This document shows, piece by piece, positions 1,100 to 24,577 of a DNA stretch of 32,000 bases (the first letter of the stretch is position 1; each line of letters begins with the position of its first letter). The notes under the pieces were generated by a model that was not told the origin of the DNA, did no database searches, and saw only the letters and a list, made by a program, of their open reading frames with translations. The stretch spans positions 450,001-482,000 of the forward strand of contig NC_014833.1 of assembly GCF_000179635.2 (NCBI RefSeq), read 5' to 3'. This DNA comes from Ruminococcus albus 7 = DSM 20455 (lineage in GTDB: Bacteria > Bacillota > Clostridia > Oscillospirales > Ruminococcaceae). Both the position numbers and the translations under genes were made by a program.

Positions 1100-2179
1100 A
1101 TGTCCGCAAAGCGCAATTATTCAACCGATTTACTTCGTTGTATACTGATGATAATGATAACTGCGCATCACATTATCGTTCATACATTAGATCTTAAAGC
1201 GCTTGGGACAGGCAGTGTTGCGGCCGACAGGTTCGATTTTTCACTGTTTTTGCTGAACTCATTTTGTATTATAGCTGTTAACGCATTTTTCTTCATAAGC
1301 GGTTATTACTCAATTAAACTTAAATCAAAAAAAATAGTCTTACTGTACGTTGAAATGGTGTTCTACCTGTTCTTATGGTACCTTGTCATGCTTTTGACAG
1401 GGCAGTTTCCTCTGAAATCGGGACAATCGCTCAAATATCTTTTCAATGTGGCGTTCCCTATCTCGACGTACTGGTTCATGGGCGCATATTTTCTGCTTTG
1501 CATACTTGCGCCTTTCATTAATGGATTTATAGATTCCCTTGATGCGGAAAAGCAGAAAAAACTGCTGATAACCCTTAGTGTCGTAGCTGTGATATACGGC
1601 TTTATATTCGACTGGGACGGTATCGGCAGAGGACACACGTTTTTGCACGGATTGTATATGTATTTCGTAGGTATGCTGTGCCGCAAGAACAGTGAAAAGC
1701 TTCCCAAGAACAAGCTGATATATCTGGGAATATATCTTGCAACTTCGGGGGCTGTTGCTTTTGCGGCTTTTGTGATGTACAGACATTCACATTCCACGCT
1801 GGCATGGTATATTTACAGCTACAACGATCCGCTGATAGTAATAGGTGCTGTGGCACTTTGCCTGCTGTTTATTTTCTGGGATTCATACGGACCTGTATCG
1901 GAATTTTCAAGCAGGATATCAAAATATGTGCTTTCTGTCTACCTTATAACGGTAAACCCGACATTTGTTTTTTATCCCGTAAAGAGATTCATGGAGACAC
2001 ACAACAGTCAGCCTGTTGTCATCTCCTCGATAGTCGTATATTCGATAGCGCTTTTTGCTGTATGTATAGTTATCGATCTTCTCAGGGAAAAGCTGTTTGC
2101 ATTTTTAGGCAGAGTACTTCATTTGGAGGATTTATATGAAAATATTTGTAACTGGTATTGGTGGTCAACTCGGTTATGA
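1100..2179 (+). CDS. Acyltransferase family 3 (OafA/YrhL-like) integral membrane O-acyltransferase
   Basis: About 10 predicted TM helices. The N-terminal motif (RCILMIMITAHHI) is typical of acyltransferase-3 proteins. I prefer ATG 1100 (GGAGG at 1089-1093) over the track's GTG at 1085. The 3' end overlaps rfbD by 44 nt. Confidence 0.8.
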   Translation: MSAKRNYSTDLLRCILMIMITAHHIIVHTLDLKALGTGSVAADRFDFSLFLLNSFCIIAVNAFFFISGYYSIKLKSKKIVLLYVEMVFYLFLWYLVMLLTGQFPLKSGQSLKYLFNVAFPISTYWFMGAYFLLCILAPFINGFIDSLDAEKQKKLLITLSVVAVIYGFIFDWDGIGRGHTFLHGLYMYFVGMLCRKNSEKLPKNKLIYLGIYLATSGAVAFAAFVMYRHSHSTLAWYIYSYNDPLIVIGAVALCLLFIFWDSYGPVSEFSSRISKYVLSVYLITVNPTFVFYPVKRFMETHNSQPVVISSIVVYSIALFAVCIVIDLLREKLFAFLGRVLHLEDLYENICNWYWWSTRL

Positions 2180-3023
2180 TGTTATAAACGAACTGAAAAA
2201 GCGCGGTCATGAGGCTGTGGGTTCTGATATTTTCGACGGTGTTGAACAGGATGTTGAGTACAGAAAGCTTGACATCACCGACAAAGAAGCAGTCGAAAAA
2301 ACGCTGACGGAAGTAAGACCCGATGCTGTGATACACTGTGCCGCATGGACTGCTGTTGACGCGGCAGAGGATGAGGAAAATCTCCCGAAAGTACGGGCGA
2401 TAAATGTTGACGGCCCGCAGAATATCGCAAATGTCTGCAAAAAGCTGGACTGCAAGATGATACAGATATCCACCGACTATGTTTTCAACGGACAGGGCGA
2501 AACTCCCTGGCAGCCCGACTGCAAGGACTACGCACCGCTGAATGTTTACGGTCAGTCGAAGCTTGACGGCGAACTTGCGGTAGCCAACACCCTTGAAAAA
2601 TATTTCATCGTCAGGATAGCATGGGTATTCGGCGTGAACGGAAATAACTTCATCAAGACCATGCTGAATGTGGGCAAAAAGTACCCAGAGGTACGTGTGG
2701 TAAACGACCAGATAGGTACACCCACCTACACCTTCGACCTTGCACGTCTGCTGGTGGATATGGCTGAAAGCGATAAGTACGGATACTACCATGCTACCAA
2801 CGAGGGCGGATATATAAGCTGGTATGACTTCACCTGCGAGATATTCAGACAGGCGGGTTATGATACGAAAGTCACCCCTGTGACAACTGCGGAGTACGGA
2901 CTTTCCAAGGCGGCACGTCCTTTCAACAGCAGACTTGACAAGTCCAAGCTTGCAGAAAACGGCTTTGAGCCTCTGCCGACATGGCAGGACGCAGTAGCCA
3001 GATATCTGAAAGAAATTAAATAA
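2136..3023 (+). CDS. rfbD: dTDP-4-dehydrorhamnose reductase
   Basis: 295 aa. MKIFVTGIGGQLG Rossmann start, STDYVF and YGQSK motifs typical of RmlD. GGAGG RBS at 2123-2127. Confidence 0.93.
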   Translation: MKIFVTGIGGQLGYDVINELKKRGHEAVGSDIFDGVEQDVEYRKLDITDKEAVEKTLTEVRPDAVIHCAAWTAVDAAEDEENLPKVRAINVDGPQNIANVCKKLDCKMIQISTDYVFNGQGETPWQPDCKDYAPLNVYGQSKLDGELAVANTLEKYFIVRIAWVFGVNGNNFIKTMLNVGKKYPEVRVVNDQIGTPTYTFDLARLLVDMAESDKYGYYHATNEGGYISWYDFTCEIFRQAGYDTKVTPVTTAEYGLSKAARPFNSRLDKSKLAENGFEPLPTWQDAVARYLKEIK

Positions 3024-3039
3024 TCGGGTGGTCATATAA

Positions 3040-4104
3040 ATGTTTGACAATAATATAAAAAATGTTTTTGTTACAGGTGCGGCAGGATTTATCGGCTCGA
3101 ATCTGGTAACAAAGCTGTTCGGTATGCTTGACGGTGTATGTATCATCGGTCTTGACAATATGAACGATTACTACGATGTAAGCCTGAAAGAGTACCGCAT
3201 AGCAGAGATAGAAAAGGCTGAAAAGAACAGCAAGTGCACTTTTAAATTCTATAAAGGCGACCTTGCTGACAAGGCACTTATCACGAAGATATTTGAGGAA
3301 CACAAGCCTGAGATAGTTGTGAACCTTGCGGCGCAGGCAGGTGTGAGATATTCTATCGAGAACCCCGATGCTTACATAAATTCCAATATGATCGGCTTTT
3401 ATAATATCCTTGAAGCCTGCCGTCATAATCCTGTGGAACATCTTGTTTATGCAAGTTCTTCCAGCGTTTACGGCGGAAACAAGAAAGTTCCATTCAGCAC
3501 TGATGATATGGTAGACCACCCTGTTTCACTGTATGCGGCTACCAAAAAGAGCAACGAACTTTTTGCCCACGCATATTCAAAGCTGTACAATATCCCAACA
3601 ACGGGCCTTCGTTTCTTTACCGTTTACGGCCCTGCGGGTCGTCCCGATATGGCGTATTTCGGATTCACCAACAAGCTTGTTAACGGCGAAACAATAAAGA
3701 TATTCAATTACGGAAACTGCAAGCGCGATTTCACTTTTGTTGACGATATCGTTGAGGGCATAGTCCGTGTTATGCAGAAAGCTCCCGAAAAGAAAAATGG
3801 TGAGGACGGTCTGCCTGTACCGCCTTATGCGCTGTACAATATCGGCGGCGGCACTCCCGAAAATCTGCTGGATTTCGTGCATATACTCAGCGAGGAACTT
3901 GTCCGCGCAGGGGTACTGCCCGAGGATTATGATTTTGATGCGCACAAGGAACTAGTACCGATGCAGCCGGGAGATGTCCCCGTGACTTACGCGGACAGCA
4001 CCGCACTTGAGCGCGATTTCGGTTTCAAACCGACAATCGACCTGCGCACAGGTCTGCGCCGTTTTGCGGAGTGGTACAAGAATTTCTATATGGGAGGAAA
4101 GTAA
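3040..4104 (+). CDS. NAD-dependent sugar epimerase, UDP-glucuronate 4-epimerase-like
   Basis: 354 aa extended SDR with [20 protein letters not shown] and YAATKK motifs. It resembles Cap1J/LpsL-type UDP-GlcA 4-epimerases and lies immediately upstream of ugd. Substrate is inferred, not proven. Confidence 0.75.
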
Positions 4105-4105
4105 T

Positions 4106-5338
4106 ATGAAGATCGCAGTTGCGGGTACAGGATATGTGGGACTTTCGCTGGCGGTATTGCTGGCGCAGTATAATTCTGTTACCGCTGTTGACATCGTACC
4201 CGAAAAGGTGGACATGATAAACAGTAAAAAATCGCCCATTCAGGACGATTACATAGAGAAATATCTTGCCGAAAAAAAACTCGACCTCACTGCAACTCTT
4301 GACGGCGAGAGCGCATATAAGGACGCTGAATTTGTTATAATCGCAGCCCCCACCAACTACGACCCGAAGAAAAATTTCTTCGATTGCAGTGCGGTTGAAG
4401 CAGTTATCGGACTTGTACAGAAAGTCAATCCCGATGCGATAATGGTCATAAAATCCACCATACCTGTTGGATATACCAAGAGCGTGCGCGAGAAGTTCGG
4501 TACAAAAAACATAATTTTCAGCCCCGAGTTTCTGCGCGAAAGCAAGGCACTTTATGATAACCTCTATCCCAGCCGTATCATTGTCGGTACCGATATGGAG
4601 GATGAGCGTCTTGTAAAAGCAGCACATACCTTTGCTGCACTGCTGCAGCAGGGCGCAATAAAAGAGGATATCGACACTCTGTTTATGGGCTTCACCGAGG
4701 CTGAGGCTGTAAAGCTGTTCGCAAATACTTATCTTGCACTGAGAGTAAGCTATTTCAACGAGCTTGACACATACGCAGAGATGAAAGGTCTTGATACCCA
4801 GCAGATAATCAACGGTGTTTGTCTTGACCCTCGTATAGGTACGCATTATAATAATCCTTCCTTCGGCTACGGCGGATATTGTCTGCCCAAGGATACCAAG
4901 CAGCTGCTTGCGAATTATGCTGATGTTCCGCAGAACATGATGTCTGCTATAGTTGAATCCAACAGGACGAGAAAGGATTTCATCGCAGACAGAGTTCTCG
5001 AAAAGGCAGGATACTATTCGTCGAACAGTTCGTGGGATTCTACCAGTGAAAAGAATGTTGTTATAGGCGTTTATCGTCTGACAATGAAATCCAACAGTGA
5101 TAATTTCCGTCAGAGTTCCATACAGGGCGTTATGAAGCGTATCAAGGCTAAGGGTGCAACAGTTATAATCTACGAGCCCACCCTGAAGGACGGCGAAACA
5201 TTCTTCGGAAGTCAGGTCGTGAATGACCTTGAAAAATTCAAGGCTGAGTCTGCGGCTATCATCGCCAACAGATATGACAGCTGTCTTGATGATGTGCAGG
5301 AGAAGGTCTACACCCGTGACCTTTTCAGAAGAGATTGA
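4106..5338 (+). CDS. ugd: UDP-glucose 6-dehydrogenase
   Basis: [14 protein letters not shown] Rossmann start and the catalytic-Cys motif [10 protein letters not shown]. The true start is ATG 4106 with GGAGG upstream. The track's 4007 start is only an in-frame read-through extension overlapping the previous gene. Confidence 0.93.
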
Positions 5339-5344
5339 TGTGAT

Positions 5345-5376
5345 AAAGGCACTTCTGTGTAAGGAGTGCCTTTTTG
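5345..5376 (+). terminator. Rho-independent terminator after ugd
   Basis: AAAGGCACTTC / GGAGTGCCTTT stem (about 11 bp including one G-U pair), 7-nt loop, followed by TTTTT. Confidence 0.7.
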
Positions 5377-5441
5377 TTTGTGATATTTGACTATTTTGCG
5401 AATTGAGATTTGTACTTTCTGCTAAAAATAATAAGAAATTA

Positions 5442-5470
5442 TTGAAAAATTTGGGATAATCTGTTATAAT
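5442..5470 (+). promoter_or_regulatory. Sigma-A type promoter for the lipoprotein gene
   Basis: TTGAAA (5442-5447), 17-nt spacer, TGT-TATAAT (extended -10; TATAAT at 5465-5470). Confidence 0.55.
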
Positions 5471-5547
5471 CAAGACGTTGGAAAATAAGGTGGGTGACAC
5501 CGCGACAGAATTAGGGTATATCCCGGATTCAGAAAGGTTGGGTTTTA

Positions 5548-6480
5548 ATGAAAAAAGTTCTCGCATTGACTCTCGCACTGACAATGTCTGCTATGATGTT
5601 TGCTTCGTGCGGTGATTCTAAGGATGAAAGCAAAGCTGATGCGTCTTCAAAGGCTGCAGCATCGGAGGCTGCGGAGGGACAGGCTGATGTGTCAGAGGCA
5701 GCTGAGGAGTCGGAAGCAGCTGAAGAAACAAGCGCTCCCGAAGTGACAGAAGAACCTGCCGAAAGCGAGGCAGAGGCTGCACCTGAGATTGCAGAATTTG
5801 ACAGAACAAAGGTGATAGGCTACGATGAAACAGCAACCGAAACTGTTATCGAGCTGACAGACCAGATATCGGATGCATGGACAAACGGTCTGGGTTCATA
5901 TTCTGTTGAAGGCGGCAGCGGTGATAACTATGTCGACGGCAGATGCTTTGACAGAGATAAGGATGTACACATGGTAGTTGAGTTTGAGTACACCGAGAAG
6001 TTCAATCAGATGATCGAGGAGGATATCACAGATCAGCACAAGCAGCAGATCGTTATAGGTCCCGGTCACGCTAACGGCTGGAACAAGTTCGGTGAGACAT
6101 TTGAGGGACTTATTACCGACTATCCTGCAGTGAATGATCCGAACCTGAAAGATTACGTGGTAGCTAACGGTGAAGATCTGGCAACACCCGAAACCAAGGA
6201 TGAAGCATCCAAGACGGATCAGGTATGGCCTGATGTATTCGTTAAGTCTGACGGATTCATAAAGATAGGCAATCACGATGTAAAGTCTGTTGAGTTCACT
6301 ATCCCCGCGGCTGAGATCAATGCACTTATCGACAATTCCACACTCGATCCCGATGATCCCGAGAAGTGGGGCGATGGTATAATGTTCCAGATCGGCGGCA
6401 ATATGTACATTACCAAGATCACCATAGATCAGGGCAACGTTTTCCTGAAATCTCAGATCGCTGAAAGCGGAATGGCATGA
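5548..6480 (+). CDS. Secreted lipoprotein with an acidic Glu/Ala-rich linker, function unknown
   Basis: Signal peptide with lipobox (MMFASC, Cys21). About 70 aa of low-complexity E/A/S-rich sequence, then a roughly 220-aa globular domain that I cannot assign to a family. Confidence 0.75.
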   Translation: MKKVLALTLALTMSAMMFASCGDSKDESKADASSKAAASEAAEGQADVSEAAEESEAAEETSAPEVTEEPAESEAEAAPEIAEFDRTKVIGYDETATETVIELTDQISDAWTNGLGSYSVEGGSGDNYVDGRCFDRDKDVHMVVEFEYTEKFNQMIEEDITDQHKQQIVIGPGHANGWNKFGETFEGLITDYPAVNDPNLKDYVVANGEDLATPETKDEASKTDQVWPDVFVKSDGFIKIGNHDVKSVEFTIPAAEINALIDNSTLDPDDPEKWGDGIMFQIGGNMYITKITIDQGNVFLKSQIAESGMA

Positions 6481-6592: not shown

Positions 6593-7558
6593 TCATATTC
6601 TGTTATCAAGGAATGCAAGGGTCTTTTCATCATAGACCATATCCTGTGCTGCCATGTTCTCCTCCATCTGCCAGAGCTTTGTAACGGCAAATACAGATGA
6701 TACAAAGAATGGCTGGCTGTTCAGGTAGCCCAGAGGAACTACCGCAGGAGGTGTGCCTGTTTTATCGCATAGCTGTTTTACTCTTGCAAGACGTGCAAGG
6801 TTCGCTGTAGAAGCAAACTGGCTTTCCGGCAGATTTGTAGCTGCATCACCTCTCGCAAGCTTTGCGAAAAAGCCTTTAGCCTGGGGCGAGAATGCCATCA
6901 CAGGGAAATTGTGTCGTCTGTACCACCCGAATTCCCTTGTATCCATGCATACGAGTGTTTTATCACCGAGTATATCGGTGCTTGCGTGTGCGAGTGAATA
7001 GTTTATCTGGCTGATGCGGATAGGTTCAAGTCCATTCTCGCGGGCATAGCGGTTGGCTTTTTCGATACGTGCGGTAGTCCAGTTAGATACACCTATGAAA
7101 TGTATCTTCCCGGATATATACATTTCGTTCAGTATAGGCATTATTTCTTCAACGGGAATATGCGGATCATCGCGATGAAGAAAATAAATATCTACGTAGT
7201 CAGTTTTAAGACATTCAAGACTCTTTGCAAGGTCTGCTTCAAGGCTTGCCCTGTCAAGACGGGACTCGCCTGTTTCGAGGTCGTGATGACCACCCTTTGT
7301 GGAGATGATAACCTTGTCACGACATTTTCTGGATTCCAGCCATCTGCCGATAACAGATTCGCTTGAATCAGCACCGCCTTCGATCCATTCACAGTAAACG
7401 CGGGCAGTGTCTATACACCAGCCGCCAAGCTCGATATATTTATCCAGGCAGGAAAAATAAGCATCATCATTATCGTGTCTTTCAAAATTAGCCGTGCCAT
7501 ATGTCAGGCATGGTATCTTTATCTCGTATTTTTCGTTCTTCAGTGTGCAGGTCAGCAT
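6593..7558 (-). CDS. Aldo/keto reductase family oxidoreductase
   Basis: 321 aa. The AKR catalytic tetrad context is visible: DTARVY (Asp, Tyr), STKGG (Lys), FLHRDD (His). GGAGG RBS. Confidence 0.9.
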   Translation of the reverse strand: MLTCTLKNEKYEIKIPCLTYGTANFERHDNDDAYFSCLDKYIELGGWCIDTARVYCEWIEGGADSSESVIGRWLESRKCRDKVIISTKGGHHDLETGESRLDRASLEADLAKSLECLKTDYVDIYFLHRDDPHIPVEEIMPILNEMYISGKIHFIGVSNWTTARIEKANRYARENGLEPIRISQINYSLAHASTDILGDKTLVCMDTREFGWYRRHNFPVMAFSPQAKGFFAKLARGDAATNLPESQFASTANLARLARVKQLCDKTGTPPAVVPLGYLNSQPFFVSSVFAVTKLWQMEENMAAQDMVYDEKTLAFLDNRI

Positions 7559-11860: not shown

Positions 11861-13015
11861 ATGACGGAGAAACTGTTTGATAACGGCACGCTGTTTGCTT
11901 TTGATGCGCAAGTGACAGCCTGTGCTGAAACTGAAAAGGGATATGAAGTCATACTCGACAGAACGGCTTTTTTTCCTGAAGGCGGAGGACAGGCAGGCGA
12001 TGCAGGTACTCTTGACGGAGTAAAGGTAACAGATACCTATGAAAGAAACGGTGAAGTCATTCACCTGTGCAGGTCATCGCTGGAGGTCGGTAAAAAGGTA
12101 TACGGTGAGATAGATGCGGATATACGTATCAGAAGGATGCAGAACCATTCGGGGGAGCACCTTCTTATGGGATTTATCCATAATATGACGGGCTATGAGA
12201 ACGTAGGATTCCACATGGGCTCGGAGGAAGTGCTTCTTGATCTTGACGGTGTCATATCGGCTGAGGATATAAGGATATGCGAACAGAAAGCCAATGAGGC
12301 TGTTGCCGCTGATGTACCTATCACCATAAGCTATCCTGATGGCGAGGAGTTATCCTGTATGGAATATCGCAGCAAGCTGGAAATGACCGAAAATGTCAGG
12401 ATAGTGACCATTGAGGGCATTGACCGCTGCGCCTGCTGTGCGCCACATTTTCCTTCAACGGGAAGTATAGGTATAATAAAGGTCATATCCGCTGAGAGCA
12501 ACCGCGGCGGAACAAGGCTGCATATAATATGCGGACTGGATGCGCTTGATCTGATAAGGCAGAGGATGGAAAGTAATGCTGCTATATCGCGTATGCTGTC
12601 TGCTAAGCCTGAAAAAACTGCAGATGCTGTTGAAAAGCTGCTTGGCGAAAACGCAGCGCTTAAAAAACAGCTTGCGGAAAACGAGCGCCGTGCGGCAGAG
12701 GATATCATCGGAAGCATAAAAAATGACAGCAGAAAAAGCTTCTGCGTATTCACAAGAGGTATCGGCAGGAACAATATGCAGAAGATAGCCAACCATGCTG
12801 TAAAGCTTACTGACGGTGCGGTGGCTGTGCTTTCGGAGGATGCGGCAGGCTTTGGCTATATCATAGCATCCGAGAAGCTGCCGCTGCGTGCCATGGCTAA
12901 GGATATCAACTTGGCTCTGGGCGGAAAGGGCGGAGGCTCGGATCAGATGATACAAGGAACTTTTACAGCACCAAAGGAAGCTATCGAAAGCTACTTTAAA
13001 GCGATGCAGATGTAA
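11861..13015 (+). CDS. alaX: Alanyl-tRNA editing protein, AlaX-L type (tRNA synthetase second additional domain plus DHHA1-like C-terminus)
   Basis: 384 aa. Zinc-binding editing-site motifs HSGEHLL and CCAPH are characteristic of the AlaRS/ThrRS editing (SAD) domain. The N-terminal FFPEGGGQ motif is also typical. Confidence 0.85.
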   Translation: MTEKLFDNGTLFAFDAQVTACAETEKGYEVILDRTAFFPEGGGQAGDAGTLDGVKVTDTYERNGEVIHLCRSSLEVGKKVYGEIDADIRIRRMQNHSGEHLLMGFIHNMTGYENVGFHMGSEEVLLDLDGVISAEDIRICEQKANEAVAADVPITISYPDGEELSCMEYRSKLEMTENVRIVTIEGIDRCACCAPHFPSTGSIGIIKVISAESNRGGTRLHIICGLDALDLIRQRMESNAAISRMLSAKPEKTADAVEKLLGENAALKKQLAENERRAAEDIIGSIKNDSRKSFCVFTRGIGRNNMQKIANHAVKLTDGAVAVLSEDAAGFGYIIASEKLPLRAMAKDINLALGGKGGGSDQMIQGTFTAPKEAIESYFKAMQM

Positions 13016-14414: not shown

Positions 14415-14443
14415 TTGACAAATGGGGTGATATGGTGTATAAT
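14415..14443 (+). promoter_or_regulatory. Sigma-A type promoter of the tRNA cluster with an A-rich UP-like region
   Basis: TTGACA (14415-14420), 17-nt spacer, TGT-TATAAT (14438-14443). Preceded by long A-tracts at 14385-14410. Confidence 0.65.
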
Positions 14444-14499
14444 AGATACTGTTGTGAGGGACGAAACGAAAACGAAACGAACTTCACAGGAAAGAATAT

Positions 14500-14572
14500 G
14501 GGGGTTTAGCTCAGCTGGGAGAGCATCTGCCTTACAAGCAGAGGGTCACAGGTTCGAGCCCTGTAGTCCCCA
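14500..14572 (+). tRNA. tRNA-Val (anticodon TAC)
   Basis: Hand-folded canonical cloverleaf: acceptor GGGGGTT/AGTCCCC, D arm GCTC-AGCTGGGA-GAGC, anticodon arm TCTGC-CTTACAA-GCAGA, T arm ACAGG-TTCGAGC-CCTGT. No encoded CCA. Confidence 0.93.
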
Positions 14573-14618
14573 TCAGTCAGATGTGTGCAGAACTTATCTG
14601 CACACGACTCTCTGACAC

Positions 14619-14692
14619 GGCCCGGTAGTTCAGTTGGTTAGAACGCCGCCCTGTCACGGCGGAGGTCGTGAGTTCGAGTCTCATCCGGGTCG
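14619..14692 (+). tRNA. tRNA-Asp (anticodon GTC)
   Basis: Acceptor GGCCCGG/CCGGGTC, anticodon arm CCGCC-CTGTCAC-GGCGG, T arm GTGAG-TTCGAGT-CTCAT, discriminator G. Confidence 0.93.
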
Positions 14693-14699
14693 CTTATAT

Positions 14700-14775
14700 G
14701 CTTCTGTAGCTCAGTCGGTAGAGCAGGGGACTGAAAATCCCCGTGTCGGTGGTTCAATTCCACTCGGAAGCACCA
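14700..14775 (+). tRNA. tRNA-Phe (anticodon GAA), CCA encoded
   Basis: Acceptor GCTTCTG/CGGAAGC, anticodon arm GGGGA-CTGAAAA-TCCCC, T arm GGTGG-TTCAATT-CCACT, discriminator A followed by CCA. Confidence 0.93.
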
Positions 14776-14778
14776 TTT

Positions 14779-14851
14779 GCGGATTTAGCTCATCTGGTAG
14801 AGCGCCACCTTGCCAAGGTGGAGGTAGCGAGTTCGAGCCTCGTAATCCGCT
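14779..14851 (+). tRNA. tRNA-Gly (anticodon GCC)
   Basis: Acceptor GCGGATT/AATCCGC, anticodon arm CCACC-TTGCCAA-GGTGG, T arm GCGAG-TTCGAGC-CTCGT, discriminator T. Confidence 0.93.
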
Positions 14852-14893
14852 CTCAGTATCCCGATGCTTAGGTATCGGGATACATTAATTAAT

Positions 14894-14967
14894 GCGGGTT
14901 TATTTCAACGCTAGAATACCTTTCTTCCTGAGAGGAGAAACTTGTTTAACTCAAGTGACCCGCTCCA
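14894..14967 (+). tRNA. Atypical tRNA-like gene with a Gly (UCC) anticodon, non-canonical D and T loops and encoded CCA
   Basis: Hand-folded cloverleaf. Acceptor GCGGGTT/GACCCGC, then T8 A9. D stem TTC/GAA with D loop AACGCTA (no GG). Anticodon stem CCTTT/AGAGG with loop CTTCCTG. Variable region AGAA. T stem ACTTG/CAAGT with T loop TTTAACT. Discriminator T, then CCA. Flanked by hairpins at 14856-14883 and 14971-14993. Not validated with a covariance model. Confidence 0.6.
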
Positions 14968-14970
14968 CTG

Positions 14971-14998
14971 AATGCCGATAGTTTATCGGCATTTTTTA
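14971..14998 (+). terminator. Terminator-like hairpin plus T-tract inside the tRNA cluster
   Basis: AATGCCGATA / TATCGGCATT stem followed by TTTTT, ending only 4 nt before tRNA-Gly(CCC). It may act as a partial terminator or a processing/stability element. Confidence 0.5.
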
Positions 14999-15001
14999 TA
15001 T

Positions 15002-15074
15002 GCGGATTTAGCTCATCCGGTAGAGCGCCACCTTCCCAAGGTGGATGTGGCGAGTTCGAGTCTCGTAATCCGCT
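15002..15074 (+). tRNA. tRNA-Gly (anticodon CCC)
   Basis: Near-identical paralogue of the GCC gene: acceptor GCGGATT/AATCCGC, anticodon arm CCACC-TTCCCAA-GGTGG, T arm GCGAG-TTCGAGT-CTCGT, discriminator T. Confidence 0.92.
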
Positions 15075-15078
15075 TATC

Positions 15079-15115
15079 GCCCCTGTCGCGTATGGCGCGG
15101 CGGGGGTCTTGTTTT
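15079..15115 (+). terminator. Rho-independent terminator ending the tRNA cluster
   Basis: Long GC-rich hairpin (CCCCTGTCGCG-tatgg-CGCGGCGGGG) followed by a T-rich stretch CTTGTTTT. Confidence 0.6.
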
Positions 15116-19544: not shown

Positions 19545-20123
19545 TCATCGCGGCGGCTGAGCATATGAATGCTTTTTCAATGCCTGAGATATTGGCTTAT
19601 ACAGCATAAAACATATAGCTGCATTCAGTGCGCTTTTGATAAGGTTGAATGGCAGCAGGAGAGGCATTATCATGCCTATTACCTCGTCAATGGTGGTATG
19701 TGCATATATCGGTGTGATGAACAAATTCATCACCAGCATAACGGCAGTCATGCTGAACATGGCGGCGATAAGACCAATTACTGCGCCCTTGAAACTTTTG
19801 TTGTACTTGTATATCAGCGATGCTGTAACGGCAAATGCGGCGCTTCCGCCAAAATTCATAACCGCCCCGAGAAATCCTGTGTCGGACAGTGTTACCATCT
19901 CCAGCAGAGATTCTGCCAAGGCTACACCCAAAGCAGCCAATGGCCCGAAAACAAATCCTGCCATTGTGATGAACACGTCTTTGAATTCGAGGGTGAGGAA
20001 GCTGACTTTGAATCTGAAAACGAACAGACACAGATAACCAAGTGCGGTGAACATCGCCAGTATCGTCATTTCCTTGACATCCATTTTTTTGGAAGAGGAA
20101 GCACCCGCTGTTTTTGTACTCAT
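19545..20123 (-). CDS. ribU: ECF transporter S component, riboflavin-specific (RibU-like)
   Basis: 192 aa, about 6 TM helices, typical ECF S-component architecture. Substrate is assigned from the FMN riboswitch directly upstream. Confidence 0.8.
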   Translation of the reverse strand: MSTKTAGASSSKKMDVKEMTILAMFTALGYLCLFVFRFKVSFLTLEFKDVFITMAGFVFGPLAALGVALAESLLEMVTLSDTGFLGAVMNFGGSAAFAVTASLIYKYNKSFKGAVIGLIAAMFSMTAVMLVMNLFITPIYAHTTIDEVIGMIMPLLLPFNLIKSALNAAICFMLYKPISQALKKHSYAQPPR

Positions 20124-20194: not shown

Positions 20195-20209
20195 GATTTT
20201 TATGATGTC

Positions 20210-20349
20210 GTTTCTTTCATCCGGACTATACCGTCGGTACGGGTTTCTCACCCGTTCGGCGCCGGGCACACTGGCGAGGCGTTCGAGGACTTACAGCATA
20301 ACAGAAACTGCTGCTCACCTCCGGTGTGGACTTTCACCACCCCTGAAAC
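20210..20349 (-). promoter_or_regulatory. FMN riboswitch (RFN element)
   Basis: The minus strand reads GTTTCAGGGGTGGTGAAAGTCCACACCGGAGGT...GCCGAACGGGTGAGAAACCCGTACCGACGGTATAGTCCGGATGAAAGAAAC. This matches the conserved RFN cores (GGTGAAA-TCC, ACCGG-GGT, CCGACGGTATAGTCCGGATG-AGA) with a closing P1 of GTTTC/GAAAC. Confidence 0.9.
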
Positions 20350-20388
20350 TAATTTATAGATATATGCCCTGTAACAGATCGCAGGATA

Positions 20389-23427: not shown

Positions 23428-24577
23428 ATGATCAGTTTTAATGTACCGCCGGTAGTCGGTAATGAACTCGGATTTATAGCTGAAGCAGTGGAAAATAGAC
23501 GTATTTCAGGTGATGGTGATTTCACGAAGCGCTGCAGCAGGCTTATGGAAAAACGCTTTGATGCGCGTCACGTACTGATAACTACGAGCTGCACCAGTGC
23601 TCTTGATATGGCTGCACTTTTATGCGGTTTCAATGAGGGCGATGAGGTCATTCTTCCAAGCTATACCTTGCTATACCTTTTCCAGTACCGCCAATGCTAT
23701 TATACTTGGCGGTGCAGTGCCTGTATTTGTAGATGTTCGTCCCGATACCATGAATATCGACGAAACGAAAATAGAAGCAGCAATAACTCCGCGTACAAAA
23801 GCCATAACTGTTATGCATTACGGCGGTGTAGCCTGCGAAATGGATACTATAATGGATATAGCGCACAGGTATGGTCTTATGGTCATAGAAGATGCAGCTC
23901 AGGGAGTCATGAGCACCTATAAGGGAAAATATCTCGGTACTATAGGAGATTTTGGGTGCTATTCGTTCCACGAGACTAAGAATTACTCTATGGGCGAGGG
24001 CGGGGCGCTGCTCATAAATAATGATGCTTATCTTGAAAGAGCGGAGATACTACGTGAGAAAGGAACGAATCGTTCCAAGTTTTACCGCGGTGAGATAGAC
24101 AAATACACATGGGTAGATTTCGGAGACAGCTATCTTCCAAGCGAGATAAATGCGGCGTTTCTCTAGGGACAGCTGCAGATGCTTGATGAGATAAACAATG
24201 ATCGTCTTACAACTCACCGCATATACTCAGAAGCCTTTGGACCTCTGGTAAAAAAGGGACTTATAGAGATACAGAACATCCCGGATGGCTGCTGTCATAA
24301 TGCTCATCTTTTCTATATAAAGCTGCGTGATCTTGAACATAGGACAGAGTTCATAAAATATATGAAGGAAGCAGGTATAACTACGGTATTCCACTATGTA
24401 CCGCTGCATTCTGCTCCCGCAGGTATACATTACGGCAGATTCAGCGGAAAAGATATTTATACGACAAAGAAAAGTGAACGTCTGGTCAGGCTTCCTATGT
24501 ATTACGGAATGACAGATGAGGACAGGCATACTGTAACGGAAACTGTCTTGTCTTTCTTTGTGATGACGGAGGAATGA
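23428..24577 (+). pseudogene. WecE/RffA-like dTDP-4-amino-4,6-dideoxyhexose (DegT/DnrJ/EryC1 family) aminotransferase, disrupted by a frameshift and an in-frame stop
   Basis: Three consecutive ORF fragments (23428-, 23597-24166, 24179-24577) together align collinearly with my recollection of E. coli WecE. Matching motifs: FNVPPVVGNEL, SCTSALDMAALL, DEVILPSYT, VFVDVRPDTMNIDET, HYGGVACEMDTIM, EDAAQGVMSTYKG, FHETKNY, REKGTNRS, DKYTWVD, NAHLFYIKL, FHYVPLH. A 10-bp tandem duplication of GCTATACCTT at 23660-23679 shifts the frame. TAG at 24164-24166 replaces a Trp codon. Removing the duplication gives about 379 codons. Confidence 0.85.

Follow-up and report, generated by a model that had tools for sequence, protein, structure and literature searches.

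What is the 74-nucleotide (nt) element that separates two ordinary glycine tRNA genes in the chromosome of Ruminococcus albus 7? The DNA analysed here (32,000 nt of contig NC_014833.1, positions 450,001 to 482,000, hereafter the window) contains a tRNA array in which a further cloverleaf can be drawn at positions 14894-14967 of the forward strand. The first-pass annotation, made from the letters alone, had drawn it by hand between tRNA-Gly(GCC) and tRNA-Gly(CCC), a placement borne out by the ARAGORN coordinates, and had regarded it as a tRNA-Gly(UCC)-like gene which keeps the identity elements of glycyl-tRNA synthetase (GlyRS), has a remodelled elbow and might not serve protein synthesis. The element is a conserved structured RNA gene within the housekeeping tRNA operon of the R. 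albus clade. The earlier observation is confirmed and its interpretation partly supported: the reading we favour, with about as much confidence as doubt, is that of a dedicated non-ribosomal donor of glycine, whose partner would probably be a GNAT-fold enzyme of the Mom type or of a phage type.

The element reads GCGGGTT TA TTTC AACGCTA GAAT A CCTTT CTTCCTG AGAGG AGAA ACTTG TTTAACT CAAGT GACCCGC T CCA (arms in Table 1) and has a host-like G+C content (GC) of 45%. The identity set of bacterial GlyRS consists of G1-C72, C2-G71, G3-C70, U73, C35 and C36; all of these are present, as had been noted together with the encoded CCA, and the same set is invariant in 20 members of the family described below. 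Minimum free energy folding recovers the acceptor, anticodon and T stems (three of four arms) with C32:G38 closed (z = -2.96). The elbow and anticodon loop are indeed remodelled, but not every elbow contact is missing as had been supposed. G19 is lost and position 56 is U (most phage relatives keep C56); the D loop, however, retains a single G (AACG) which aligns with G18 and is nearly invariant in the family, and U55 is kept. Position 37 is a pyrimidine, U, and C32 and G38 can close the anticodon loop to 5 nt. The element was examined for the canonical contacts G18-U55 and G19-C56, a purine at 37 and an open 32/38, and does not show this set.

The T stem differs as well. The canonical Gly(GCC) and Gly(CCC) genes of the operon carry G49·U65 and G51-C63, while the element pairs A49-U65 and U51-A63. 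With the T-stem energies of Table 2 in PMC3239215, the predicted contribution to EF-Tu binding is -9.8 kcal/mol for the element and -11.2 kcal/mol for the canonical Gly(GCC)/Gly(CCC) genes; the element is predicted to be 1.4-1.9 kcal/mol weaker than the operon's canonical tRNA-Gly genes, and members of its family range from -9.3 to -10.2 kcal/mol. The AU-richness of pairs 49-65 and 51-63 noted earlier is found in the window but not in two of the relatives (L017 and L019), where these pairs are G-C and G·U. To judge from its sequence, the element has lost the features of efficient decoding: G19, C56, purine 37, open 32/38, G10-C25, G49·U65 and G51-C63.

Two of the programs to which the first-pass annotation had pointed as a check do not detect the element. 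ARAGORN, run on the array, called the neighbouring tRNAs and did not call it, and Rfam model RF00005 gave no match to it within 14840-15010, either at the gathering score (29 bits) or at E <= 10, while the five neighbouring canonical tRNAs score 62.9-69.3 bits. Permissive Rfam matches in the same region (FTHFS, STnc430) are to unrelated families at chance level, and were rejected. With covariance model R1, which was built solely from 13 tRNAs of mobile elements, its score is 69.8 bits (E about 3e-16), compared with 41.1 and 39.8 bits for the canonical tRNA-Gly genes on either side and 36.5 bits for tRNA-Val. Since canonical tRNA-Gly genes score only about 40 bits, the element belongs to the mobile-element family and is not an ordinary tRNA.

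Relatives within Ruminococcus were reached first via the CNNM gene, and they keep the tRNA array. In L001 and L002 (CNNM 86% identical) the element is identical to that of the window; in L007 (CNNM 71%) it differs at four of 74 positions, all unpaired, and the flanking hairpins are extensively changed with compensation. A scan of one genome per species, with a pattern in which the acceptor ends and the T loop alone were fixed, located it in 11 Ruminococcus genomes at species level, among them R. albus 8, KH2T6 and AR67. In a second sublineage (L017, L019, L025 and L026) the T stem ACTTG/CAAGT has become GTGAG/CTTAC or CTTGC, pair 31:39 has changed from U:A to C:G and position 37 from U to C, so that the pyrimidine noted at 37 in the window is a pyrimidine there too; the element of this sublineage stands 3-6 nt behind tRNA-Gly(GCC), last in the operon, at the terminator. 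Between the window and L009 the canonical tRNAs are 100%, the element 94.6% and the spacers 66-81% identical. Between the window and L017/L019 the corresponding values are 83-84% (Asp), 89.5% (Phe), 92% (Val) and 97-99% (Gly(GCC)), against 81% for the element, whose T and anticodon stems carry compensatory changes; the alignment of orthologous loci suggested earlier has therefore yielded the compensatory stem changes that were sought. Every Ruminococcus copy keeps U33, the 7-nt loop and the anticodon UCC. These sequence comparisons show the element to be a functional RNA gene, under somewhat weaker constraint than the canonical tRNAs around it, and not a decaying copy. The protein neighbours vary among relatives (CorA, AlaX-like, Hsp33, CNNM), and hence only the tRNA array travels with the element.

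The same scans returned members outside Ruminococcus: L012 (a Propionibacteriaceae metagenome-assembled genome, MAG), L021 (an Aminicenantes MAG), L024 (a metagenome contig with two tandem copies, L024a and L024b) and L048 (a viral contig). The family frame comprises 74 nt with encoded CCA, pairs G1-C72 to G4-C69, U73, U8-A9, a 7-nt D loop AACGNNA, an anticodon loop C32-U33-N34-C35-C36-N37-G38 (exceptions are L012, with A37 and C38, and L021, with A33), a variable region of 4 nt (3 nt in L021) and a T loop UU(C/U)AAYU. The window element has the full signature; its anticodon loop CTTCCTG is that of L024b, and its T loop TTTAACT recurs in L024a, L048 and L052. Over 20 distinct members 96.4% of pair cells are standard, compared with about 40% when the partners are slid, 13 of the 21 pairs have changed on both sides, and the observed covariation score was reached by none of 500 shuffles. 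The four-arm cloverleaf is thus supported by covariation, and together with the R1 score and the conservation this shows the hand-drawn structure to be real and under selection.

None of these 20 members departs from the rest in the first four acceptor pairs, U73, CCA, C35 or C36, while at N34 A, C, G and U all occur and N37 may be any base. At position 33 L029 has G and L021 has A, and in three Oscillospiraceae prophages (L052-L054) the anticodon loop has 8 nt (C-A/G-C-A-C-C-U-G) beside a T loop, UUUAACU, which is the same as that of the window. G19 is lost throughout the family. U10·U25 and U56 set the R. albus element apart from most phage members, although U56 is found also in the enzyme-linked L024a, L048 and L052. 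The T loops of two other enzyme-linked tRNAs, L045 and L055, begin with UGC (UGCAAAU and UGCAAAC); this triplet is the substitution reported for staphylococcal non-proteogenic tRNA-Gly.

The company which these tRNA genes keep points to their use. An enzyme gene lies beside three of the four non-Ruminococcus members that were found through their tRNA, namely L024, L021 and L048. In L024 a DUF488-like protein precedes the two tRNAs and a 468-amino acid protein follows, in which a phage Dam-like domain (PF22555) is joined to a phage GNAT-like domain (PF22559). This protein retrieved 19 loci on viral contigs, 16 of which include DNA upstream of the enzyme gene; a family tRNA lies upstream of the Dam-like/GNAT gene in 16 of 16, mostly ending about 75 nt before its start. 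The recurrent module consists of a DUF488-like gene (phrog_2450), the tRNA-Gly-like gene, the Dam-like/GNAT fusion and a ParB-like gene, usually just upstream of the terminase. It is found in L024, L050 (Mycobacterium phage Jeon), L051 and the Oscillospiraceae prophages L052-L056, and is annotated as hypothetical in all records seen. Its tRNA is annotated in Jeon, as tRNA-Gly(tcc), gene 67; that of Gordonia phage Soos (L049) is unannotated, scores 35.9 bits and is not called by ARAGORN, and the Peribacillus phage-plasmid L051 gave no significant match to the family tRNA. Named carriers of the fusion enzyme are Dysosmobacter, Oscillospiraceae, Provencibacterium and Clostridia, as well as actinophages and Streptomyces and Peribacillus replicons.

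The open reading frame (ORF) adjoining the tRNA of L021 encodes a standalone GNAT-phage-like protein (E = 2e-16; tblastn and Pfam), and that directly 3' of the tRNA of L048 a Mom-family protein (E = 1.4e-37 to PF25680) with matches to Mom-like genes in 259 phage records. In two of four cultured Mom-carrying phages tested, Arthrobacter phage Sicarius2 (L059) and Pseudanabaena phage Pan3 (L060), an unannotated tRNA-Gly-like gene abuts the Mom-like gene. Mycobacterium phage Rohr and Microbacterium phage WaterT have no family tRNA within 1.5 kb, and the pairing is accordingly frequent but not universal. In all, the tRNA adjoins a Mom-family, GNAT-phage-like or Dam-like/GNAT gene in L021, L024, L029-L043, L045, L048-L050, L052-L056, L059 and L060. 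We found no description of a GNAT- or Mom-associated tRNA-Gly family in the searchable literature.

The fusion enzyme was modelled with an alignment-based AlphaFold run (pLDDT 87.8). Its C-terminal domain has the GNAT fold, with Mom (8bv8) among the top Foldseek matches (prob 1.0, TM 0.48-0.54). A sequence search of the PDB gave only uL30, a spurious match. In the Dam-like domain motif IV takes the form [Y/F]PPF, in which PPF is invariant and is preceded by Tyr or Phe instead of Asp or Asn; this motif suggests a domain that would bind adenine without classical methyl transfer.

The Mom protein of phage Mu, a GNAT enzyme, moves glycine from Gly-tRNA-Gly onto the N6 of adenine in double-stranded DNA; it accepts all three host isoacceptors, and a dedicated tRNA is not described (Silva et al., Nat Commun 2026, PMC13219725). 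The present family resembles that system in that a GNAT-fold enzyme would use Gly-tRNA-Gly outside the ribosome, a true Mom homologue directly follows one member (L048) and the Mom-like genes of Sicarius2 and Pan3 abut tRNA-Gly-like genes. It differs in that the window holds no Mom or GNAT gene, and in that the commonest partner of the family is the Dam-like ([Y/F]PPF) and GNAT-phage-like fusion flanked by DUF488-like and ParB-like genes.

Because the positions needed by GlyRS are fixed, those needed only for decoding are free and Mom-type GNAT genes are neighbours, a non-ribosomal glycyl donor is suggested, and the donor idea of the first-pass annotation gains strong comparative support from these neighbours, from the variable positions 34 and 37 and loop length, and from the weaker predicted EF-Tu T stem. 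Under this proposal the element would be co-transcribed with the operon from the promoter near 14415 and processed like a tRNA. Host GlyRS would glycylate it, EF-Tu and the ribosome would bind it poorly, and it would hand its glycine to a tRNA-dependent GNAT-fold transferase. For the relatives in mobile elements the acceptor would most likely be adenine N6 in DNA (Mom-type 'momylation'), with the Dam-like adenine-binding domain or the ParB-like partner responsible for targeting; in R. albus the transferase would be encoded outside the window. A broader proposal, which we hold more tentatively, is that Mom-type systems and the Dam-like/GNAT fusions (DUF488-like/ParB-like flanked) bring their own translation-insulated tRNA-Gly in phages of Actinobacteria, Firmicutes and Cyanobacteria, which would make these a class of non-proteinogenic tRNA not recognised before. 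In the R. albus clade one of them would have become fixed in a core tRNA operon, where it may feed a tRNA-dependent glycyl transferase of the host, perhaps for the glycylation of DNA adenines, or hinder the phage enzymes.

A number of findings weigh against the donor reading. Neither the window (Pfam, 30 ORFs) nor the approximately 8 kb fetched around other Ruminococcus copies contains a GNAT, Mom, Fem or other aminoacyl-tRNA transferase; tblastn with Dam-like/GNAT, DUF488-like and N6-methyltransferase queries against the window and 27 fetched loci (25 of Ruminococcus type, L012 and L021) gave no match in the window or any fetched Ruminococcus locus, and neither the window element nor those loci have the tRNA adjoining one of the three enzyme types. 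There is no Ruminococcus among the named carriers of the fusion enzyme. In Foldseek the GNAT domain of the fusion resembles generic acetyltransferases at least as closely as it does Mom, for which reason we do not call it a Mom-family member. L012 is a stand-alone member with a normal anticodon loop (CUUCCAC, A37), no GNAT nearby, no PHROG hits and no phage-like neighbours, and may be a decoding-competent or cell-wall-related variant. The remaining points bear on decoding: every Ruminococcus copy has UCC, U33 and the 7-nt loop, the element is placed between the GCC and CCC isoacceptors of a strong tRNA operon as a decoder would be, its conservation is tRNA-like, and GGA makes up 22% of the glycine codons in the window, so that some reader with UCC must exist. 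No canonical tRNA-Gly(UCC) was found in the fetched Ruminococcus loci, although these cover only a few kb per genome and its absence from them means little. The element could therefore be the working tRNA-Gly(UCC) of the genome, reading GGA (and GGG) despite an odd elbow and missed by gene finders. We think this unlikely, though the likeliest of the rivals: position 37 is U or C according to sublineage, C32:G38 can shrink the loop, U10·U25, the lost G19 and U56 are unfavourable, as is the predicted deficit in EF-Tu binding, the element evolves faster than its canonical neighbours, and its closest relatives have clearly non-decoding loops and adjoining GNAT enzymes.

A cell-wall role was the precedent invoked by the first-pass annotation, with the element as glycyl donor to a Fem-family transferase for a glycine-containing peptidoglycan cross-bridge. 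It shares hallmarks of NP1-3 of Staphylococcus aureus (UCC, an extra C:G in the anticodon arm, loss of G19, U10·U25 as in NP3, no G49·U65 or G51-C63), and constitutive expression from a housekeeping tRNA operon would fit. However, the window has no Fem (PF02388) gene and the transferase search around the other Ruminococcus copies was equally negative, a literature search was uninformative and gave no evidence of glycine cross-bridges in R. albus, the sequence relatives pair with Mom-type or phage GNATs and not with Fem enzymes, and U55 and one D-loop G are kept, unlike in the staphylococcal tRNAs; we regard the Fem pathway as improbable here. Slightly less probable still is a tRNA mimic kept by the host for regulation or defence, for example as a decoy that would bind phage Mom-type enzymes, GlyRS or a T-box and not support their reaction. 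The family is found otherwise in phages of this same order of bacteria while the element lies in the host core genome at host-like GC, most phage members lack its U10·U25 and U56, and there is no partner enzyme nearby. This argument is purely inferential, we know of no precedent for a decoy of this kind, U56 recurs in enzyme-linked members, and conservation of the full GlyRS identity set and CCA suggests that the element is charged. Least of all do we favour a tRNA-Gly(UCC) copy in decay, as raised earlier, or the neutral remains of a past phage insertion. The tRNA finders miss the element, the D stem has a mismatch, and in L003, a strain whose CNNM protein is the same, a solitary tRNA-Gly(CCC) follows a promoter of its own. 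Yet it is conserved over the 11 species-level genomes while spacers diverge, the T and anticodon stems show double compensatory changes, and the acceptor, C35 and C36 are invariant. Because of this conservation and covariation the pseudogene or drift reading was rejected, and the glycyl donor remains our preferred explanation.

How far the preferred donor would follow known models can be judged by comparison. The non-proteogenic (NP) tRNA-Gly species of S. aureus are without G18-G19 and U55, have an extra C:G closing the anticodon loop, are without G49·U65 and G51-C63, and are hypomodified, and in NP3 U10 and U25 are unpaired (PMC7826273, PMC12256121, PMC13443448); the lineage has been reported only in staphylococci (PMC7826273). 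They were compared with the element by published descriptions alone. Both are extra tRNA-Gly(UCC) genes in a tRNA operon which keep GlyRS identity and have lost G19; the loop C-UUCCU-G of the element can be closed by C32:G38, an equivalent of the extra C:G pair (PMC7826273, PMC13443448), and the U10·U25 of NP3 and the predicted weak T stem without G49·U65 and G51-C63 recur. The NP tRNAs, however, are without G18, G19 and U55 (T loop TGC/TGT), while in the element one D-loop G and U55 remain and it is C56 that has gone; moreover it occurs in Ruminococcus, there are no Fem genes in the window, and its relatives pair with DNA-modifying GNATs. It would be a variant of the staphylococcal idea in a pathway that is probably different. 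With canonical tRNA-Gly(UCC) it shares the cloverleaf, the length of 74 nt, GCGGG.../...CCCGC, U73, CCA, U8, U33, UCC, a 7-nt D loop and a 4-nt variable region, but it differs in being missed by RF00005 and ARAGORN and in U10·U25, the lack of G19, U56, pyrimidine 37, the potential C32:G38 and the weak predicted EF-Tu T stem. The 'tRNA-Other' of Bacillus cereus is likewise a chromosomal tRNA-shaped RNA thought not to serve ordinary decoding; it differs in its Trp/Lys-related identity and is not known to be linked to GNAT enzymes.

The hairpins that had been described as bracketing the element are present on both sides (Table 1). The upstream one is retained with compensatory changes in L001 and L007 and absent from the L017/L019 lineage. 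The downstream one looks like a terminator because a T run follows; its equivalent in relatives is diverged and compensated, and in L017 and L019 a terminator-like hairpin likewise lies directly 3' of the element. As there is no room for a promoter between this hairpin and tRNA-Gly(CCC), transcription of the latter would require read-through. The CNNM proteins of L003 and L001 are identical; in L003 tRNA-Gly(CCC) stands alone with its own TTGACA...TATAAT promoter. The order Val-Asp-Phe-Gly(GCC) is identical in all Ruminococcus relatives. Among the six genes of the array (14499-15074) the 3' CCA is encoded only by tRNA-Phe and the element, and not by Val, Asp, Gly(GCC) or Gly(CCC). In R. albus 8 (L016) and L010 the Val-Asp-Phe-Gly(GCC) block is duplicated behind tRNA-Gly(CCC), and the element and tRNA-Gly(CCC) remain single-copy.

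Table 1. Coordinates of the element, its parts, its surroundings and related loci (dG, folding free energy; window, R. albus 7)
Sequence	Feature	Coordinates	Strand	Evidence or remark
Window	tRNA-Gly(UCC)-like gene, 74 nt	14894-14967	+	Sequence, fold, model R1, covariation, conservation
Window	Element, acceptor stem, 7 bp	14894-14900 with 14957-14963	+	
Window	Element, D arm	14903-14917	+	Loop AACGCTA; stem 3 bp plus U10·U25 mismatch
Window	Element, anticodon arm	14919-14935	+	Loop CTTCCTG; stem 5 bp, 6 bp if C32:G38 closes
Window	Element, anticodon TCC	14926-14928	+	
Window	Element, variable region, 4 nt	14936-14939	+	
Window	Element, T arm, 5-bp stem	14940-14956	+	Loop TTTAACT
Window	Element, U73	14964	+	
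Window	Element, encoded CCA	14965-14967	+	
Window	Sigma-70-type promoter-like site TTGACA-17-TATAAT	14415-14443	+	12/12 consensus match only; upstream of tRNA operon
Window	Canonical tRNA-Val(TAC), tRNA-Asp(GTC), tRNA-Phe(GAA), tRNA-Gly(GCC)	14499-14852	+	ARAGORN; RF00005 64.7-69.3 bits
Window	tRNA-Gly(GCC)	14779-14852	+	ARAGORN
Window	Stable hairpin, no T run after	14856-14883	+	dG -21 kcal/mol, z = -7.5; between tRNA-Gly(GCC) and element
Window	Terminator-like hairpin and T run	14970-15000	+	Hairpin 14970-14994, dG -13.4 kcal/mol; ends 2 nt before tRNA-Gly(CCC)
Window	Canonical tRNA-Gly(CCC)	15002-15074	+	ARAGORN; RF00005 62.9 bits
Window	Terminator-like hairpin, 13-bp stem then T run	15079-15107	+	Closes array
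Window	AlaX-like protein, free-standing	11861-13015		tRNA_SAD and DHHA1 domains
Window	FMN riboswitch	20205-20354	-	89.5 bits
Window	ECF-transporter S component	19545-20123	-	Presumably riboflavin transporter
Window	DegT/DnrJ/EryC1-type aminotransferase, three ORFs	23428-23922, 23597-24166, 24179-24577		Different frames
L016 (R. albus 8)	Duplicated Val-Asp-Phe-Gly(GCC) block	1772-2827		
L010	Duplicated Val-Asp-Phe-Gly(GCC) block	1954-3029		
L012	Stand-alone family member	6944-7017	-	
L024	Module	2986-5256		
L045	Enzyme-linked tRNA	2570-2641		
L049 (Gordonia phage Soos)	Family tRNA	2321-2394		
L050 (Mycobacterium phage Jeon)	Module	1425-4716		
L052	Module	3339-6276		
L052-L054 (Oscillospiraceae prophages)	Family tRNA	3862-3936		
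L055	Enzyme-linked tRNA	3902-3974		
L059 (Arthrobacter phage Sicarius2)	tRNA-Gly-like gene	2086-2159		Abuts Mom-like gene; unannotated
L060 (Pseudanabaena phage Pan3)	tRNA-Gly-like gene	2092-2160		Abuts Mom-like gene; unannotated; reduced D arm; not called by ARAGORN

The window as a whole is ordinary chromosome with a GC content of 44%. Before the array lie rhamnose and sugar-nucleotide genes, ffh, rpsP, an Rrf2 regulator, the AlaX-like protein and CorA; after it come CNNM/CorC, a transglutaminase-like protein, an FMN riboswitch with an ECF transporter, efp, pfk, YfhO and a glycosyltransferase. The AlaX-like protein, 1.5 kb upstream of the array, is a putative trans-editing factor for mischarged tRNA-Ala, and its linkage to the array is kept in L002 and not in L001. 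The riboswitch lies upstream of the ECF-transporter S component. The aminotransferase split over three ORFs is either a frameshifted pseudogene or a sequencing error.

Non-proteinogenic tRNAs have so far been seen as a speciality of staphylococci, bound up with their pentaglycine bridges. The element appears to follow the same logic, GlyRS identity being kept and fitness for EF-Tu and the ribosome lost, in an unannotated gene of the core tRNA operon of a major cellulolytic genus of the rumen and gut. Standard tRNA finders miss such genes: ARAGORN calls none of the R. albus, Soos and Pan3 copies, and those of Soos, Pan3 and Sicarius2 are unannotated in their records. The use of Gly-tRNA by Mom-type enzymes was established only in 2026, and the family of the element is physically linked to such enzymes. 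If the proposal is true, many phage DNA-modification systems would bring their own tRNA co-substrate, which would explain some of the 'orphan' tRNA-Gly genes of phages, and the family would provide a simple genomic marker for tRNA-dependent nucleic-acid modification.

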